A stretch of 64,000 bases of DNA. Origin: Chloroflexota bacterium (GTDB lineage Bacteria; Chloroflexota; Dehalococcoidia; Dehalococcoidales; UBA2162). The translations under genes were made by a program, and so were the position numbers. The number at the start of each line of letters is the position of its first letter. The stretch's first letter is position 1. The notes under the pieces are model-generated. The model was given only the letters and a program-made list of their open reading frames with translations, was not told where the DNA came from and searched no databases. This document shows positions 15,434 through 61,495 of this stretch, in pieces. The DNA lies in NCBI GenBank assembly GCA_043804635.1, contig JAZDIU010000089.1:8909-72908 (forward strand), given 5' to 3'.

Positions 15434-16834
15434 TTATAATAAGCTCTTCACCATGTAGTCGCCCTGGCTGGTATAGCTGAACTGGGTGCGGTAATATTCT
15501 CTGGCACCGACGCCGCTCAGAATTACCATTTGTTTGGCGTGGAATTCTTCCCGGGCGATTCTCTCAGCTTCGACTAATAGCGCTCTACCCAGCCCTTTAT
15601 GCTGGGCGGCGGTCTCATTCTGCTCCTGTAAAGGGACTTCGGGACCGTATATATGCAGCTCTCTAATCAGGGCTGTTTTATTCTTTTGTTTGAGAGTGGC
15701 CGGGGGTTCTTCGACGCTGCTCAGGACATGTCTGTCTTGAATCCTCATTCTCAGCAGGCCGAATAGAGTTTCGTTTTTATCTTCGAACGATAGGAAAATT
15801 TCTCTGCCCGCCGACGCTTCGTAGTCCGTTCGGACTATTTTCGGTTCACCAACCGTCCAGCCGGTCCGCATCCGGTGTCCGTATTCACGGCAGCGGATAC
15901 AGTTACATTCCACCTCGAGTTCTTTCATCCGCTCTCTAACTTCGTTACGCAGTGAGTCTTTGACACCAGCCACGATAAACTTCGCCGGAATATCCCGCAG
16001 AACCCGGGAAATTCTGACATATTTGGGAACGATAGACTTAATATTGGTTAACAGATCCATCATAGTTTCATTATCGTAAGGCTGATAACGTCCTGCCCGA
16101 TACCACCTTTCCAATTCAGTGTCCTGCACAACCATCGTCGGGTAGAGCTTTAAACCATCGGGTCGGAAACGGCTATCGGAGAACAGGTTTTCCGATAGTT
16201 CCAGGTCTTTCATCGGCGTTAAGCCGGGTAATCCGGGCATCCAATGATAATGGACTTTGAAGCCATTCTCTTTGAGTAAGGCGGTAGCTTTAACCACATC
16301 TTCTACAGTATGTTTTCGATTCACCAGCCGGTAGATTTCGTCGTCCAGAGTCTGGATACCCAACTCCACGCGGGTCGTGCCGAAATCAAGCATCCTGGTG
16401 ATGTGTTCCGGCTGGCAGAAGTCGGGCCTGGTCTCGATGCATAGTCCGACGCAGCGTTGGTCGGCCGTTTCATTAATTTGTTTTGCCTGCTCCAGGGAGG
16501 TCGATTCAATACTATTGAGTGCGTCATAGCAGTCTTGGATAAACCGGTATTGATATTCTTCCGGTTGAGCCAGAAATGTCCCCCCCATTATTATCAGCTC
16601 GATTTTATCTGTGGGGTGCCCCATCTCCTGCAAGGTTTTTAGTCTGAGTTCCACCTGTTTGCAGGCGTCGTAGCCGCATTTTATGGCGCGCAATACTGCC
16701 GGAGATTCGGGAGTATAGCTTTGCGGCGTATCTGAATAAGTGGGACAATAGATACATTGTCCGGGACACTTTGCCGGCTGGGTCATCACGGCGATGGGGG
16801 TGACACCGGATATTGTCCTGGTAACCTTTCTCAT
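15434..16834 (-). CDS. elp3: tRNA U34 carboxymethyltransferase Elp3 (radical SAM + KAT)
   Basis: CPGQCIYCP, MGGTF, IETRPD, LKLYPT, RVLRDIP, CIRCRE, RELHIYG, QHKGLG. Confidence 0.95.
   Translation of the reverse strand: MRKVTRTISGVTPIAVMTQPAKCPGQCIYCPTYSDTPQSYTPESPAVLRAIKCGYDACKQVELRLKTLQEMGHPTDKIELIIMGGTFLAQPEEYQYRFIQDCYDALNSIESTSLEQAKQINETADQRCVGLCIETRPDFCQPEHITRMLDFGTTRVELGIQTLDDEIYRLVNRKHTVEDVVKATALLKENGFKVHYHWMPGLPGLTPMKDLELSENLFSDSRFRPDGLKLYPTMVVQDTELERWYRAGRYQPYDNETMMDLLTNIKSIVPKYVRISRVLRDIPAKFIVAGVKDSLRNEVRERMKELEVECNCIRCREYGHRMRTGWTVGEPKIVRTDYEASAGREIFLSFEDKNETLFGLLRMRIQDRHVLSSVEEPPATLKQKNKTALIRELHIYGPEVPLQEQNETAAQHKGLGRALLVEAERIAREEFHAKQMVILSGVGAREYYRTQFSYTSQGDYMVKSLL
15707..15730 (-). 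repeat. 24-bp hairpin element A in frame in elp3 (HVLSSVEE)
   Basis: catgtcctgagcagcgtcgaagaa on the minus strand. Confidence 0.8.
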
Positions 16835-27525: not shown

Positions 27526-28335
27526 TCACTTGAGAGCATTTCTCAATCCCTTTACAAACTCTTTTACCCGCGGTATAAAGTCAGGAGTCTCCATAAGCTG
27601 GATGAGGCGGCTGCCCACGATAACGCCGTCGGCGATGCGGGCGACACGTTTTGCCTGCTCGGGTGTGGATATGCCGAAACCGATACAGATGGGCTGGGTG
27701 GCAACTTTTCTGACTCTAGCGGCGAATTGCTCGAGGTCGGCAGGTAGCTGATTTCTCGCTCCAGTAACTCCAGCGACTGAGACGAGATAAATGAAACCGG
27801 TAGAATGCTTAGCTACCAGCTTTATGCGTTCTTCAGTGCTGGTCGGCGCCAGCAGGTAAATAAGGTCAAGCCCTTGTTTGTGGGCGGCTGTTTCCAGTTC
27901 CGAGCCTTCCTCCGGGGGCAGGTCGGGAATAATCATACCGTCAATACCATTCTTAGCACAGGCGTCAGAGAATTTTTCCAGTCCGTAGTTGAGAATTGGG
28001 TTGTAGTAACCCATAAAGACGAGCGGAATATTAATCCTCTGCCTCAGTTTTCGGGCGATATCGAGGCAGATTTCGGGGGTAACGCCGTTTTGCAGAGCGC
28101 TAAAGCTTGCTTTTTGTATGGTGACGCCATCAGCGAGGGGGTCGGAGAAAGGTATGCCCAGCTCGACGATATCAGCGCCAGATTCAGCCAGAAGGGGGAC
28201 TACCTGTAAGGTGGCATCAAGACTAGGATAACCAACGGTAACGTAGGTGAGGAGTGCTTTGCGGCCGGGCTTAAAAACAGAAGCAATGCGGCTTCGCCTC
28301 CTTCCCGTTCGCCCTGAGCTTGTCGAAGGGCTCAT
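27526..28335 (-). CDS. trpA: Tryptophan synthase alpha chain with 13-aa element-derived N-terminal insert
   Basis: [26 protein letters not shown] overlap with the trpB stop. Confidence 0.96.
28305..28330 (+). repeat. Hairpin element A within an apparent 39-bp in-frame insert at the trpA start
   Basis: ccgttcgccctgagcttgtcgaaggg; insert flanked by AGCC on the coding strand. Confidence 0.85.
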
Positions 28336-31989: not shown

Positions 31990-32560
31990 GGTTCCTCCCC
32001 ACAGCTAGGAAATTTTTTAATATATCCTTCCCCACCTCGGTCATAAAAGATTCGGGGTGGAACTGGATGCCTTCAACCGGGAACTGCTTATGCCTGATGC
32101 CCATAATTTCGTCATCAGCCGTCCAGGCAGTTACTTCCAGGCAGTCGGGCAGTCCTTCCCGCTTGACCACCAGTGAGTGGTAGCGGATGGCGGAGAAGGG
32201 GCTGGGTAGTCCCGCCAGCAATCCCTGGCTGTTATGGTAGATTTGAGAGGACTTGCCGTGCATTATCTGCTTCGCCCGCCCGACGATGCCGCCGTAGCTA
32301 TAGCCGATGCACTGGTGTCCCAGGCAGACACCGAGAACAGGCAGTTTGGGACCGAAGTGCTTGATGACCTCGTTGGAGATACCCGCATTCTTCGGGTTTG
32401 ACGGTCCGGGTGAGACCACGATTCGCTCCGGTTTCATCCGCTCGATTTCATCAACGGTGGCCTTATCATTGCGTACCACCACGACCTCCTGTCCCAGTTC
32501 GCTTAGATACTGGAAGAGGTTGTAGGTGAAGCTATCGTAATTATCTATTAGCAGCAACAT
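31982..32560 (-). CDS. trpG: Anthranilate synthase component II
   Basis: IDNYDSFT, GVCLGHQ, QFHPES. Confidence 0.95.
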   Translation of the reverse strand: MLLLIDNYDSFTYNLFQYLSELGQEVVVVRNDKATVDEIERMKPERIVVSPGPSNPKNAGISNEVIKHFGPKLPVLGVCLGHQCIGYSYGGIVGRAKQIMHGKSSQIYHNSQGLLAGLPSPFSAIRYHSLVVKREGLPDCLEVTAWTADDEIMGIRHKQFPVEGIQFHPESFMTEVGKDILKNFLAVGRNHD

Positions 32561-34064
32561 GTCTTCCCTCCTTACTCCCCGAGCTTTCCGCCTGGCTGAT
32601 GGCTCTCAACAGTGCCCGGGCTTTATTCATAGTTTCCTCATATTCTTGCTCCGGGACGCTGTCATAAACAATGCCGCCACCCGCCTGCACATAGGCCGTC
32701 CCATTCTTCACGGACATCGTCCTGATAGCGATTGCCATATCCATATTGCCGGAGAAAGAAAAATAGCCGACCGCCCCGGCATAGGGTCCCCGCTTCTCCG
32801 GTTCGACCTCGGTGATGATTTCCATCGCTCTGATTTTGGGTGCCCCCGATACCGTGCCGGCCGGGAAGCAGGCACGCAGGGCATCGAAGGCGGTCATATC
32901 GTGTTTCAGCCTGCCCTGGACGTTGGTTACCAGGTGCATAACGTGCGAGTAGCGCTCAACGTCCATCAGTTCGCTGACCTCGACCGTGCCCGGCTCGCTC
33001 ACCCGGCCGATGTCGTTGCGCCCCAGGTCGACCAGCATAATGTGCTCGGCGCGCTCTTTTTCGTCACTGCGAAGCTCCTGTTCAAGCTGAGCATCTTCCT
33101 CCGGGGTCTTGCCGCGGCGACGGGTGCCAGCCAGGGGTCGGGTAGTAACGATACCATCCTCCACCCTGACCAGAATCTCAGGAGAAGCGCCGATAATATG
33201 GAAGTCGCCGAAATCGAGAAAGAACATATAGGGCGAGGGATTGATGGTGCGCAGCGCCCGGTAGATTTCGAAGGGAGCCGCTTTGGTGGGGCAGGAAAGG
33301 CGCTGGGAGGGGACGACCTGTATGGCTTCGCCCGCAGTAATGTATTCTTTAATTTTGCGGACGCTCGCCTCGAAGCCTTCCCGCCTGAAATTCGACGTGA
33401 ATTTAGCTTCGCCAGCCGCAGTCGGGCTATTACCATTGATATGATGGCCTGTCCTGACTTGTCCCGAGTCGTATCGAGGGAGCGAAGTCGAAGGGCTCGG
33501 CGTGATTGGCTGGTTCAATCTATCGATAAGGTTGTCGATCCGCCGCGTGGCTTCTGTGTAAGCTTTCTCTATGTTGCCATCTGTGTGAACGTGGCTCAAG
33601 ACTTTGATTTTGTGAGTAACGTGGTCGAAGATGAGCACCGTATCCACGAGCATAAAGACGGACTCAGGCAAGCCCAGGGGGTCGGGTTCCGGAGAAGGTA
33701 ATTTCTCAAAACGGGTCACCGTTTCATAGGCGAGGTAGCCCACGGCACCCCCGCAGAACTTGGGTAGTCCGCTCACCGGCACTATCTTGTATTTATTAAA
33801 CTCTCTGGAAACGAGGGAAAGGGGGTCGGTCTTGTCCTTCCCTTTAACGGTCAGCACTTTATATGGGTCGGTGCCGATGAAGCTATAGCGGGCTAATCGC
33901 TCACCGCCTTCGACGCTTTCCAGAAGAAAGGAATGGCCGCCGCGGTTGATTTTGAGGAAGGCAGACACCGGCGTCTCGAGGTCGGCAACGATTTCCCGGT
34001 AGACCGGCACCAGGTTGCCCTGCTGAGCCAGTTTCTTGACCTCGGCTAGAGTTGGATAATACAT
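32541..34064 (-). CDS. trpE: Anthranilate synthase component I with 16-aa element-derived insert
   Basis: LLESV, NPSPY, EHIMLVDLGRND, GAPK; start set to ATG 34064 after GGAGG. Confidence 0.96.
   Translation of the reverse strand: MYYPTLAEVKKLAQQGNLVPVYREIVADLETPVSAFLKINRGGHSFLLESVEGGERLARYSFIGTDPYKVLTVKGKDKTDPLSLVSREFNKYKIVPVSGLPKFCGGAVGYLAYETVTRFEKLPSPEPDPLGLPESVFMLVDTVLIFDHVTHKIKVLSHVHTDGNIEKAYTEATRRIDNLIDRLNQPITPSPSTSLPRYDSGQVRTGHHINGNSPTAAGEAKFTSNFRREGFEASVRKIKEYITAGEAIQVVPSQRLSCPTKAAPFEIYRALRTINPSPYMFFLDFGDFHIIGASPEILVRVEDGIVTTRPLAGTRRRGKTPEEDAQLEQELRSDEKERAEHIMLVDLGRNDIGRVSEPGTVEVSELMDVERYSHVMHLVTNVQGRLKHDMTAFDALRACFPAGTVSGAPKIRAMEIITEVEPEKRGPYAGAVGYFSFSGNMDMAIAIRTMSVKNGTAYVQAGGGIVYDSVPEQEYEETMNKARALLRAISQAESSGSKEGRHVAANR
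33448..33495 (+). repeat. Nested double hairpin element A (24+24 bp) in frame in trpE
   Basis: cctgtcctga[cttgtcccgagtcgtatcgaggga]gcgaagtcgaaggg. Confidence 0.9.
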
Positions 34065-34077
34065 ATAGCACCTCCGA

Positions 34078-34115
34078 AACAAAAACCCCCTCGTCCTATA
34101 GGGGCGAGGGGGTTT
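34078..34115 (-). terminator. T-box intrinsic terminator
   Basis: aaaccccctcgcccctataggacgagggggtttttg on the minus strand. Confidence 0.9.
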
Positions 34116-34137
34116 CCTTCGCGGTGCCACCCTAATT

Positions 34138-34263
34138 GTCCTTCACAAAGTGAAGGACATCTCTTTCAAGTACGATCCTTCACTTGTGAAGGACGATACC
34201 CTGGACTTTGATTACGGTGTCCTTCCGTCAAAACCTACTCACATCCTTCACCTTGTGAAGGAC
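34138..34263. repeat. Three copies of palindrome B within the T-box leader (34138-34158, 34175-34194, 34243-34263)
   Basis: RTCCTTCAC-N2-3-GTGAAGGAC. Confidence 0.92.
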
Positions 34264-34398
34264 CTTTTCGGTTTGAGGCTCCCGAGTCCATTCGACCTTA
34301 GCGTTAGCACCGGGCTCACACCTTTCCCCGGCTCTCTGAGCCTTGCTTGGGGTCTACTAGTCTCGTTCTCAGCCTTTGACTTTATTCTATTGTGTTTA

Positions 34399-35936: not shown

Positions 35937-35970
35937 GAGAGAGGGGGCGAAGCCCCCTCTCTCTTTTTTT
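35937..35970 (+). terminator. Intrinsic terminator
   Basis: gagagaggggg-cgaag-ccccctctctc followed by T7. Confidence 0.75.
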
Positions 35971-36045
35971 CATTCCCCTTCCCTTATTGAAGGGAAGGGG
36001 ATAAAGAGGATAGGTTGCCCTCCATTAAAAAGCGACAAAACTTGC

Positions 36046-36075
36046 TTGACAAGCTTAGAACATATGTGCTACCAT
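36046..36075 (+). promoter_or_regulatory. Sigma70 promoter with LexA-like box between -35 and -10
   Basis: TTGACA-18-TACCAT; AGAACATATGTGCT at 36057-36070. Confidence 0.7.
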
Positions 36076-36122
36076 TTATCCTGACCTGTTCTGAGCGTAG
36101 TCGAAGAAACGTAGTTGAAGGA
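36075..36122 (+). repeat. Nested double hairpin element A
   Basis: tttatcctga[cctgttctgagcgtagtcgaagaa]acgtagttgaagga. Confidence 0.88.
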
Positions 36123-36130
36123 TCTAACCT

Positions 36131-36562
36131 ATGATGCAAGAAAATATAAGAAGCCCCGGCGGTCAACCTGGTAACCAGAACGCCCGCACCCATGGCTTTT
36201 ACTCAAAAAGGCTTACTCAAGAACAACTTGAATCATTCCAATCAGCTAAAGACTTGAAAAGTCTAGATGATGAAATCGCCATCCTGCGCCTGAAAATCGA
36301 TTCTATTCTGGCTAATGACCCTCAAAATTACCGGGTGTTGATGCAAGCCCTGTCCTTACTAGCACGACTCCTTCAGGCAAGAATACTGATTGATAAAAAT
36401 AACCCGCGTAAGGAATCAAAAGCCATTGAAGTCCTGAGGGAAATGTATGCATCGGTAATTGGTCCGCCCGAAAATGTCAGCAGGCACGGTCAACTCTATC
36501 GACTTTTAAAAAATGACCCTTCCTCAGATTCTCCTCCCGAAAATGAGGAAAGTCGTTTCTGA
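36131..36562 (+). CDS. Hypothetical protein with a terminase-small-subunit-like GQPGNxNAxxHG motif
   Basis: GGQPGNQNARTHGFYS...LDDEIAILR. Confidence 0.7.
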   Translation: MMQENIRSPGGQPGNQNARTHGFYSKRLTQEQLESFQSAKDLKSLDDEIAILRLKIDSILANDPQNYRVLMQALSLLARLLQARILIDKNNPRKESKAIEVLREMYASVIGPPENVSRHGQLYRLLKNDPSSDSPPENEESRF

Positions 36563-58655: not shown

Positions 58656-58702
58656 CCTGTCCTGACCTGTTCTGAGCATAGTCGAAGAAGCTTGTCGAAG
58701 GA
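58656..58702 (+). repeat. Nested double hairpin element A (intergenic, 47 bp)
   Basis: cctgtcctga[cctgttctgagcatagtcgaagaa]gcttgtcgaagga. Confidence 0.9.
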
Positions 58703-58716
58703 TTATGATTTCGGAT

Positions 58717-59166
58717 TTACTTAGTCGCCCTCTCCCACTTCGCCACCGCTTTGGTATTTATCCCGCCCCGCTCCTTGTATTCCGCCTCCACCACCATAGA
58801 GACCGGCTTGATCAGTTCCACCAAATCTTGAAGTATGCGGTTTACCGCGTGCTCCTGCAATGTACCCACATTGCGGTAAGACGTTAGATAGTATTTCAGA
58901 GACTTAAGCTCCACTAGCGACTGGTCAGGGATGTAGCTTATCTTAAGCCGGGCAAAATCGGGCAAGCCCGTCCAGGGACAGACCGCCGTAAACTCATCCG
59001 TCTCATAGACTACCTCAGTCTTTGAGTCCGGATATGAAGAAGGCTTGCCCTGACTTGTTCTGAGCATAGTCGAAGAAGCGTAGTCGAAGGGAATCGCTTC
59101 CAGCACCGCCACATCTATCGCATCTTCCTTCTGAATATCGAACCGCCGTGAAACGTATTTATCCAC
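58717..59166 (-). CDS. queF: preQ1 synthase (nitrile reductase) with 16-aa element-derived insert
   Basis: [27 protein letters not shown]. Confidence 0.94.
59044..59091 (+). repeat. Nested double hairpin element A (24+24 bp) in frame in queF
   Basis: cttgccctga[cttgttctgagcatagtcgaagaa]gcgtagtcgaaggg. Confidence 0.9.
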
Positions 59167-60140: not shown

Positions 60141-60235
60141 ACTAACCTCCTTATCACTTCAACAGTAACCAAAGTTACCTTCGATTATTACAGATACTTA
60201 TCGGCTTAGCAACCCGTATCTATTTCCGACCAAAA

Positions 60236-60422
60236 CCGTTCACCTTGAGCCAGTTTACCGTGAGCTTACCGAAGGGAATGGGAAGGGGATAGGTCACCAC
60301 TTATTAACAACTTGTCCCGAGCTGTGTCGAGGGAGCGCCAAAACTTCCTTGACAAACTCAGAACTTGTGTTCTATTATTAATAATGACCTGCTGAGGATT
60401 TATCCCGAGCGAAGTCGAGGGA
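60236..60422 (+). repeat. Cluster of hairpin elements A (60254-60276 degenerate, 60311-60334, 60399-60422) and a partial element D
   Basis: cttgtcccgagctgtgtcgaggga; tttatcccgagcgaagtcgaggga. Confidence 0.85.
60349..60378 (+). promoter_or_regulatory. Sigma70 promoter with perfect LexA-like box
   Basis: TTGACA-18-TATTAT; AGAACTTGTGTTCT at 60360-60373. Confidence 0.8.
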
Positions 60423-60778
60423 AACACAGTAGACTGCTGAGCACCTTAAAATAGAGCAAATCGACCTGCTAAATCGTAAAACGACACGCCTGATAAAAGG
60501 CGCTTTAGCCGTGTCGTTTCTCTGAAAATAAAGTTACTTAAATTTAGCCGGAAACAACTACGCTCAATTCAACCCCGTTTTATGCTGCTTCGCTTCAATT
60601 TTCGGGTTATTAAATCAAGATGTTTTAGCTTCATTCCGCCTTTGTTTTTTATTTGTTTGGTCATTGATTATTGAGTATCGTAATTTGTTTGGTGCTTGTA
60701 TCTTGGTTATTGGTTATTCACCTGATAGCTGTCAGCTAAGTTGCTAAACAACCTGAATAAAGGTAAACTCAGTCTATT

Positions 60779-61495
60779 ATGCCAGAGACTAATCAACCAA
60801 GAGTGGGAGCAGTTATCGCCGCCGCCGGTGCCAGCCAGCGGATGGCAGGCATTGATAAAGTCTTTGCCCCATTGGGTGGCAAACCCGTCCTCGCCCGGGT
60901 CGTAGACGTCTTCCATAACTGCCGCTCTATCGACCAGATTGTCCTTGTCTTAAACCAGCCAAACGTTGCCAAAGCTCAGCAATTAATAGCAGAGTCCGTC
61001 CTTGCCCTGAGCTTGCCGAAGGGTAAAGTAACCGTCTGTGCCGGTGGTGAACGGCGCCAGGATTCGGTGCTCGCCGGACTTAACCATCTGGATAAGTGCG
61101 ACTGGGTGGTAGTCCACGATGGCGCCCGCCCTCTCGTCACCGAAGACTTAATCCTGAAAGGACTGGAATCCGCCCGGGAAACCGGCACTGCCGTCGCTGC
61201 CGTCCCGGTCACCGATACTATCAAATTCGCCGGAGACGACCTCATCGTTCAGGGCACACCCCCCCGCCGCAACCTCTGGGCGGTGCAGACACCCCAAGTC
61301 TTCCGCTTCGACATTATCACCGAAGCCTACCGCCAGATGAAGTACGAAGTCACCGATGATGCCACCCTGGTTGAGCGGACGGGTTACAAAATTAAACTCT
61401 ACACTGGCTCGTATGATAATATAAAGATAACTACCCCCGACGACCTCGCTTTAGCCGAAATTTTATGGCGTAAACGTGAAAAACAAGCAGCGTAG
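60779..61495 (+). CDS. ispD: MEP cytidylyltransferase with apparent 8-aa element-derived insert
   Basis: AAAG.SQRM, GGERRQDSV, VHDGARP, QTPQ, NIKIT..DD. Confidence 0.96.
   Translation: MPETNQPRVGAVIAAAGASQRMAGIDKVFAPLGGKPVLARVVDVFHNCRSIDQIVLVLNQPNVAKAQQLIAESVLALSLPKGKVTVCAGGERRQDSVLAGLNHLDKCDWVVVHDGARPLVTEDLILKGLESARETGTAVAAVPVTDTIKFAGDDLIVQGTPPRRNLWAVQTPQVFRFDIITEAYRQMKYEVTDDATLVERTGYKIKLYTGSYDNIKITTPDDLALAEILWRKREKQAA
61001..61024 (+). repeat. Hairpin element A in frame in ispD (LALSLPKG)
   Basis: cttgccctgagcttgccgaagggt. Confidence 0.85.

Follow-up and report, generated by a model that had tools for sequence, protein, structure and literature searches.

A hairpin module of 23-24 bases exactly present or absent at several bacterial sites, its orientation with GC skew and its possible insertion as single-stranded DNA

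Described small repeats and how the module compares

The small dispersed repeats SDR1-8, reported from Nostocaceae by Elhai et al. (2008, Genome Res 18:1484), appear from their description to be the closest known kind of sequence to the hairpin module considered here. They reportedly measure about 21-27 bases and nest within one another. MITEs, which are bounded by terminal inverted repeats, generate target-site duplications and mostly exceed 100 bases, resemble the module in that it is non-autonomous, small and dispersed, but neither terminal inverted repeats nor a target-site duplication occurs at any module junction. One study (PMC4390886, in the part available) places the insertion point of SDR5 between bases three and four of HIP1; another (PMC13756078, in excerpt) gives SDR5 a length of 21 bases and has both the enzyme and the function of SDRs still unknown in 2026. 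The module resembles the SDRs in its length (23-24 bases), in being dispersed and in being inserted precisely, at one set position within a recurrent host sequence. However, SDRs are reported in Nostocaceae only, with none outside, in the available text of a further source (PMC5861425), whereas the module is found in 185 of 301 genomes of Dehalococcoidia (a class tally that includes the unpublished genome G282, on which no claim depends) and its core in many phyla.

Two other groups of elements share some features with the module. REPs are described, in the accessible portion of PMC3333891, as imperfect palindromes of 30-40 bases with a conserved 5' GTAG that flank a RAYT (TnpAREP) gene. Like REPs and BIMEs, the module is a dispersed short hairpin whose stem region has to be imperfect (PMC3333891, same portion), and the genome that holds it has a Y1 gene; it differs in its 24 bases, its YYTGT start, its 4-base-pair stem and its abundance in genomes without a RAYT match. 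It does not flank a RAYT gene, it forms no GTAG palindrome of 30-40 bases and its abundance does not go with a Y1 gene, and the REP description fits another repeat of the same genome, GTAGGGGCGGGTTTCGAACCCGCC, rather than the module. Elements of the IS200/IS605 family (IS608) have two different subterminal hairpins, a tnpA gene and insertion 3' of a fixed tetranucleotide, and their active strand lies on the lagging-strand template, as stated in the part of PMC5027513 available. The module shares with them the absence of target duplication, a fixed polarity relative to the target and an orientation bias relative to the replication fork, but it has no gene, its junctions are variable instead of following a fixed tetra- or pentanucleotide, and the strand carrying its putative G.A pairs lies opposite the lagging-strand template. 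New here are the family of modules as such, the orthologous sites that are cleanly empty, the relation of orientation to skew and the comparison with Y1 genes; text searches of the literature with core strings and with descriptions of such repeats gave no account of the module, the core strings matching unrelated primers only.

The module and its empty and filled sites

The module has the consensus YYTGT (or TTTAY)-YYY-GAGC-N2-3-G(T/C)CGA-RRR-R and is 23 or 24 bases long, with YYTGT or TTTAY as its 5' end. In the genome holding the window (the window being the whole stretch of 64,000 nucleotides analysed; the genome, G000, having 1.85 Mb, 94 contigs and 89.7% completeness), a core search that permitted a 2- or 3-base loop and required three flank positions to be paired found 58 matches on 39 of the 94 contigs, compared with 1 in a reversed-genome control, and 26 matches, compared with 5, were obtained with a degenerate 24-base pattern in which at most 2 substitutions were tolerated. 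Among the flanks, the three pyrimidines and three purines pair as CCT/AGG (26), CCC/GGG (6) and TCT/AGA (5), and fully paired flanks were present in 52 of 156 cores, as against 3 of 52 in the control; among the 126 loci listed from other phyla, the free inner pair was C-G in 65, T-A in 80, T-G in 2 and C-A in 5. A covarying stem of 3-4 base pairs closes the conserved GAGC-N2-3-GTCGA loop. Nearest-neighbour DNA folding of the 24-mers and nested pairs gave only the 4-base-pair stem (-1.8 kcal/mol), which was not better than shuffles, so that the tandem G.A pairs which the conserved loop may form are putative. Resemblances to hammerhead, K-turn, T-loop, attC and dif were considered and dropped, as the conserved positions misfit. 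The copies in the window are collected in Table 1.

Table 1. Module copies, promoter cassettes and the empty site in the window
Feature	Position	Strand	Description
Single copy	15707..15730	-	CATGTCCTGAGCAGCGTCGAAGAA, sole - strand copy in the window
23-base variant	28308..28330	+	TTCGCCCTGAGCTTGTCGAAGGG
Nested pair inside trpE (gene on -)	33448..33495	+	Outer 24 bases and inner 24 bases at 33458-33481
Empty site in paralogous cassette copy	36008..36076	+	Junction between 36031 (A) and 36032 (G)
Promoter cassette, empty copy	36032-36075	+	Conserved TTGACA, palindrome, TATTAT
Nested pair after the -10 box of the empty cassette	36075..36122	+	Outer TTTATCCTGA...ACGTAGTTGAAGGA, inner 36085-36108
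Nested pair, convergent spacer 3' of queF	58656..58702	+	23-base outer, inner 58666-58689
Nested pair inside queF (gene on -)	59044..59091	+	Inner 59054-59077; 48 extra bases, 16 residues
Degenerate 23-base variant	60254..60276	+	TTTACCGTGAGCTTACCGAAGGG, differing from the pattern by 2 substitutions
Module, filled site	60311..60334	+	24 bases, CTTGTCCCGAGCTGTGTCGAGGGA, directly 5' of GCGCC of the promoter cassette
Promoter cassette, filled copy	60335..60378	+	GCGCCAAAACTTCC, TTGACA, AGAAC-N4-GTTCT palindrome, TATTAT
Second module copy	60399..60422	+	TTTATCCCGAGCGAAGTCGAGGGA, downstream of the cassette -10 box
Core match in ispD reading frame	61001..61023	+	CTTGCCCTGAGCTTGCCGAAGGG

An earlier note on this DNA had aligned positions 36008-36076 without gaps to 60287-60379 after removal of 60311-60334, and this alignment was recovered, with 53 of 69 positions identical and a MAFFT gap of exactly 24 columns; random 69-mer pairs within the window average 17.3 identities (sd 3.7). 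Shifting the excised 24-mer by -1 also scores 53 and all remaining offsets score lower, which fixes the ends of the unit to within 1 base. With up to 3 mismatches allowed, the 24-mer occurs 2 times in the window compared with 0 expected. As the two sites are paralogous rather than orthologous cassette copies, the pair by itself shows a precise 24-base indel with no direction given. Four metagenome runs (0.06-0.07 of sampled words each) yielded no contig spanning 60311-60334 and no joints.

Independent sites confirm the defined ends that the same note had proposed, to within 1-2 bases, as the 24-base unit recurs in pairs from a REP loop, trpE and gatA. The hairpin of a REP in G000 (C32:48124-48166) has exactly 24 extra bases, CCTGT...AGGA, in its loop at G^AA, with unique placement, and removing these makes it match three 19-base copies of GGCGGGTTTCGAACCCGCC in full. 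In trpE (window 32541-34130, -), a block of 16 residues is absent in all 15 aligned relatives, and its 48 bases are exactly an outer and an inner module, in frame, the junction in the closest relative reading GATGG^CTCGG. Upstream of this gene, a T-box leader (Rfam RF00230, 112 bits) occupies window positions 34097-34379 (-). Likewise, 16 residues (48 bases) of queF (58717-59166, -) are absent in all 15 relatives caught by the pattern among 23 loci fetched; since the native PFDY codons read GTAGTCGAAGGG on the module strand, equal to the module's right half, the junction cannot be placed within 12 bases. Among 30 gatA orthologues, 28 are empty and read ggc ttc gcc gat gga, one (G012) has 24 additional bases (TTCATCCCGAGCGGAGTCGAGGGG) in frame at the junction C^CG, and one (G021) has 48 additional bases, two tandem copies, in frame. 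In G021, two tRNA genes (L158, G021:C89:96-922) also have a module directly after their 3' end (TTTACCCCGAGCGCAGTCGARGG).

The module also occurs within itself. Nine inner 24-mers lie in an outer module after GA, the next bases being GC in 7, AC in 1 and GT in 1, and in two cases a 23-base variant separates the loop of the outer module from its GTCGA; nested copies share the orientation of the host module in 11 of 11 cases, and inserts in cassettes are co-oriented with the host sequence in 3 of 3. Unbalanced nestings with an extra left half, or orphan half-modules, were found at C8 and C76:39278 of the same genome. At every placed junction (REP loop, gatA, promoter pair and trpE) there is no target duplication beyond 1-2 ambiguous bases, in agreement with the earlier reading. 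The module is thus a discrete unit of 23-24 bases that paralogous and orthologous sites either contain in full or lack altogether.

The suggestion that A^GC is the target held as a hot spot and failed as a rule. It accounts for 10 of 14 placeable junctions in G000 (7 of 9 self-nestings and 3 of 3 promoter cassettes); this genome also has A^AC and A^GT in self-nestings, G^AA in the REP loop and G^CT in trpE, a 23-base variant joins at loop^GTCGA, and gatA of relatives gives C^CG. Given these other junctions, A^GC is a preference tied to two host sequences, in which the insertion points are fixed: AA^GCGAC of the cassette, entered three times by the module and by further modules too, and GA^GC within the module.

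The promoter cassette has the consensus GCGACAAAACTTCC-TTGACA-N4-5-AGAAC-N4-GTKCT-A-TTAT, with about 36 copies in the 1.85-Mb genome and two subtypes with a 4- or 5-base spacer. We take its AGAAC-N4-GTTCT palindrome to resemble a Gram-positive-type LexA box, and one copy precedes a reading frame for what is presumably a RecA-like protein, recognised by eye. Three cassettes carry the 24-mer directly 5' of GCGMC (C44, C51 and window 60311), and four more, counted by eye, carry other small modules at that point, some with CTTGTCC...GGGA ends and a different interior, such as CTTGTCCGTGCTCCGACACGGGA in C20; most of the roughly 36 have no insert at the module site. Two of the three filled cassettes belong to the subtype GACAAACTCAGAAC and may derive from one insertion followed by duplication of the cassette.

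Several further features surround the cassettes. GCACCTTAAAAAT is found 40-100 bases after many copies, and between the cassette and ispD (window 60385-60526) lies a short non-coding stretch with a terminator-like hairpin end (AAACGACACG...CGTGTCGTTT); similar tails after other copies suggest a family of small transcripts. Behind the empty cassette, a reading frame of 143 residues (window 36131-36562, +; MMQENIRSPGGQPGNQNARTHGFYSK...) has no Pfam match. A second small repeat (window 35940-36010, L020 and L132), CCCCTCTCC-loop-GGAGAGGGG followed by GGGGTGAGGT, precedes many cassettes, and in Bacteroidota genomes the module was seen inside its loop. At window 60654-60719, a T/G-rich stretch (ttggtcattgattattgag...ggttattggttattc) draws many unrelated contigs of the four metagenome runs, with loose ends on both sides, and represents either another widely dispersed short repeat or low-complexity sequence.

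Orientation, replication strand and distribution

The orientation of the module was analyzed in G209 by sampling 60 segments of 10-20 kb, 47 of which contained modules; 88 exact copies of CCTGAGC-N3-GTCGAAGG were found in this genome, in long runs of a single orientation. The module strand as written lies on the C-rich strand in 74 of 76 modules and 45 of 47 segments, whereas with respect to the majority gene strand of the segment (from GC3-filtered ORF calls with a Pfam check) the modules divide 38 to 38. Flanking genes were co-directional in 24 cases, convergent in 18, divergent in 17 and antisense in 13. In three Pfam-checked segments, 10 genes on - and 7 on + accompany a skew of +0.21, 8 on + and 3 on - a skew of +0.18, and 5 on - and 1 on + a skew of -0.16, which confirms that the skew of G209 is not set by gene direction. 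Its dnaA is located at 3.184 Mb, where the skew switches from - to +, implying that the G-rich strand is the leading strand and that the written strand of the module corresponds to nascent lagging-strand sequence.

The skew of G209:C1 (3.26 Mb) is itself a patchwork in which segments of +/-0.1 to 0.2 flip within tens of kb and others are near 0. All 47 module-bearing segments were in skewed DNA, and 8 of 12 module-free random segments had an absolute skew below 0.04.

In G000, the skew rule is kept by 39 of 48 copies, and by 20 of 22 where the absolute skew is at least 0.03; on its contig C76, the orientation of the modules flips with the skew. All four segments with an absolute skew of at least 0.05 obey the rule in the complete genome G136, and only 3 of 6 such segments do so in G221, where 10 modules are for and 3 against; the loci of G090 (1.5-3 kb) were too short and were left out of the skew test. 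Cassettes (13 of 17) and REPs (6 of 8) of G000 lean to the same strand as the modules, so the bias is not peculiar to the module and could reflect retention. Orientation by GC skew, not by gene direction, points to a replication-linked process involving single strands, and we infer that the polarity arises at insertion and not through selective retention of copies.

Positions 60311-60334 hold a copy of this hairpin module, which is gained or lost exactly. On a narrow balance, it is likely that the copy was inserted there as single-stranded DNA at the replication fork by means of a host enzyme or some other protein, not a HUH transposase of its own. The substrate would be single-stranded DNA of the module at the fork, insertion would be strand-specific and give the polarity relative to replication, and cutting and joining might be performed by host replication or repair enzymes or by another protein that reads the conserved loop. 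The evidence consists of comparisons of presence and absence, the insertion events themselves having been seen in no case.

The core is spread well beyond the class. With one genome per species, exact TCCYGAGC-N3-GTCGARGGA was detected in at least 126 stretches from many phyla, and the matches listed include Acidobacteriota, Verrucomicrobiota, Bacteroidota (among them cultured Flavobacterium and Pedobacter), Alphaproteobacteria, Planctomycetota, Chloroflexota, candidate phyla and others. Among these stretches, the core often forms the tip of a longer hairpin or lies within some other small repeat, in its loop. The richest genus, that of G209, has the module at the end of a larger hairpin, which is found immediately upstream of a homologous promoter cassette; because the module is embedded in a larger composite repeat there, its copy number may reflect the spread of the larger unit. 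Orthologous spacers of six species of this genus differ by whole small repeats despite the absence of a Y1 or reverse transcriptase match. A repeat of about 250-670 bases (L278:10950-11870 in G209, and its congeners), present in dozens of copies per genome, opens with a homologous cassette (GTGACACGAACCCCTTGACT...GTAC-N4-GTAC...TATATT); it has no long reading frame, and Rfam gave only a chance lncRNA match for it. It is conceivable, though rather unlikely in our estimation, that modules with the GAGC-N3-GTCGA loop throughout bacteria are hairpin oligonucleotides built into the nascent lagging strand by ordinary enzymes of replication and repair, without any element-encoded, Y1 or HUH enzyme.

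The main rival to fork insertion is differential loss of hairpins on the lagging-strand template together with template switching. There would then be no dedicated mobility, as slippage, template switching and gene conversion would generate the copies and faster deletion on the lagging-strand template would produce the bias. Such an origin would agree with the copies that are tandem and not nested in gatA of G021 and in other phyla, with the orphan half-modules, with a native queF site that already resembles the right half of the module, with the common strand preference of cassettes and REPs, and with the empty searches for enzymes (PF01797, NF047646 and RVT_1). However, the empty trpE, gatA and REP-loop sites have no homology to the module and yet gained an exact unit, identical 24-mers are present at unlinked loci, and a 9-base core is kept across phyla, all of which make this explanation unlikely.

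Enzyme genes, remaining explanations and significance

The earlier note had also compared the insertion with HUH (IS200/IS605/RAYT) chemistry, and this is the part that found no support, although the strand polarity does agree with single-strand chemistry in general. A Y1/HUH enzyme (RAYT or IS200/IS605 TnpA) would move the module in trans as single-stranded DNA, which would agree with the lack of target duplication, the fixed polarity and the replication-strand bias known from IS200/IS605 (PMC5027513, in the part available), and G000 indeed has one RAYT-like gene. This sole Y1 match (187 residues, C76:21552-22112; L001 1447-2010, -) scores 67.5 bits with NF047646 (cut-off 80) and 33.5 bits with PF01797. 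GGCGGGCGGGTTATAAACCCGCC-cctac lies ahead of the gene and gtagg-GGCGGGTTTCGAACCCGCC inside it, that is, GTAG and GGGCGGG hairpins, the classical REP signature according to the accessible portion of PMC3333891, and not the module; the nearest module copies are about 9 kb off. Because GTAG with an imperfect palindrome flanks the gene, the RAYT has its own cognate repeat, other than the module. About 14 of the 25 GGCGGG...CCCGCC matches of the genome are, by our own reading, GTAG-type hairpins. One REP hairpin (GTAGGGGCGGGTTTCGAACCCGCC) is situated in frame within the RAYT-like coding sequence, between its HUH and Tyr regions.

The distribution of Y1 genes was investigated by family search, as a search with a single RAYT protein under-reported them in relatives; marker genes put the completeness of the genomes at 90-92%. 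In a set of 41 relatives, the four richest in modules (16, 12, 12 and 7 core matches) all have PF01797, in favor of a Y1 enzyme, and so do three that are free of modules. Across the class, PF01797 is present in 82 of 301 genomes and, by a count from our own table, in 7 of the 33 module-rich ones (at least 10 core matches), figures that are lower bounds because RAYT-like matches of G179 were missed by PF01797. In the family f40, 11 of 12 genomes have 20-95 core matches and none of the 12 has PF01797, which is also absent from the module-bearing f26 (0 of 17) and f10 (0 of 10). G209, G059 and G158, single contigs of 3.0-3.3 Mb with 92% completeness and 71-95 matches, have no PF01797, NF047646 or RVT_1 match, and G269, the fourth f40 genome searched, has no NF047646 match. 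Persistence of the module needs no Y1 or reverse transcriptase gene in the genome. The module is moreover a single hairpin and not a pair of ends, has no GTAG and uses five junction types rather than a fixed tetranucleotide, and a Y1/HUH enzyme acting in trans is accordingly quite doubtful.

It is also very unlikely that the module is simply a selected hairpin, serving as an RNA or protein-binding signal in the upstream region of the cassette, without any insertion. The covarying stem, the module-bearing hairpin just upstream of a homologous cassette in another genus, and the copies at transcript starts (60399 and 36075) and after tRNA 3' ends in G021 would be expected of such a signal. On the other hand, orientation is independent of gene direction (38 to 38), copies are antisense within trpE and queF, only seven of the cassettes have the 24-mer or another module, by the count given above, and Rfam returned no family at the site, either in the window at gathering score or in 60141-60780 up to E 10. 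Retro-insertion, by which an RNA copy would be reverse-transcribed and integrated, is extremely improbable, as nothing specific favors it except that stem covariation would fit an RNA stage, while RVT_1 (PF00078) has no match in G000, G209, G059 or G158 and orientation is unrelated to transcription.

Insertion at the replication fork thus continues to be the favored reading. The rather unlikely version in which ordinary replication and repair enzymes alone build the module in would explain the exact length of the unit, the absence of target duplication, the self-nesting and the near-absolute link between orientation and skew, and DNA would then be mobile without a transposase. An enzyme is what usually defines mobile DNA, and exact units of about 24 bases, in frame even within trpE, queF and gatA, rank with the smallest DNA of mobile appearance that is known. 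To our knowledge, SDRs are the sole published counterparts and have been without a mechanism for 18 years; the present case adds a core shared across phyla and clean orthologous empty sites. It also constrains the mechanism in two ways that make the question testable: orientation goes with the replication strand, and the genome need not encode a Y1 transposase or a reverse transcriptase. In their hosts, the modules alter promoters and lengthen conserved enzymes by 8-16 residues, which bears on genome annotation and on how indels are read in alignments.
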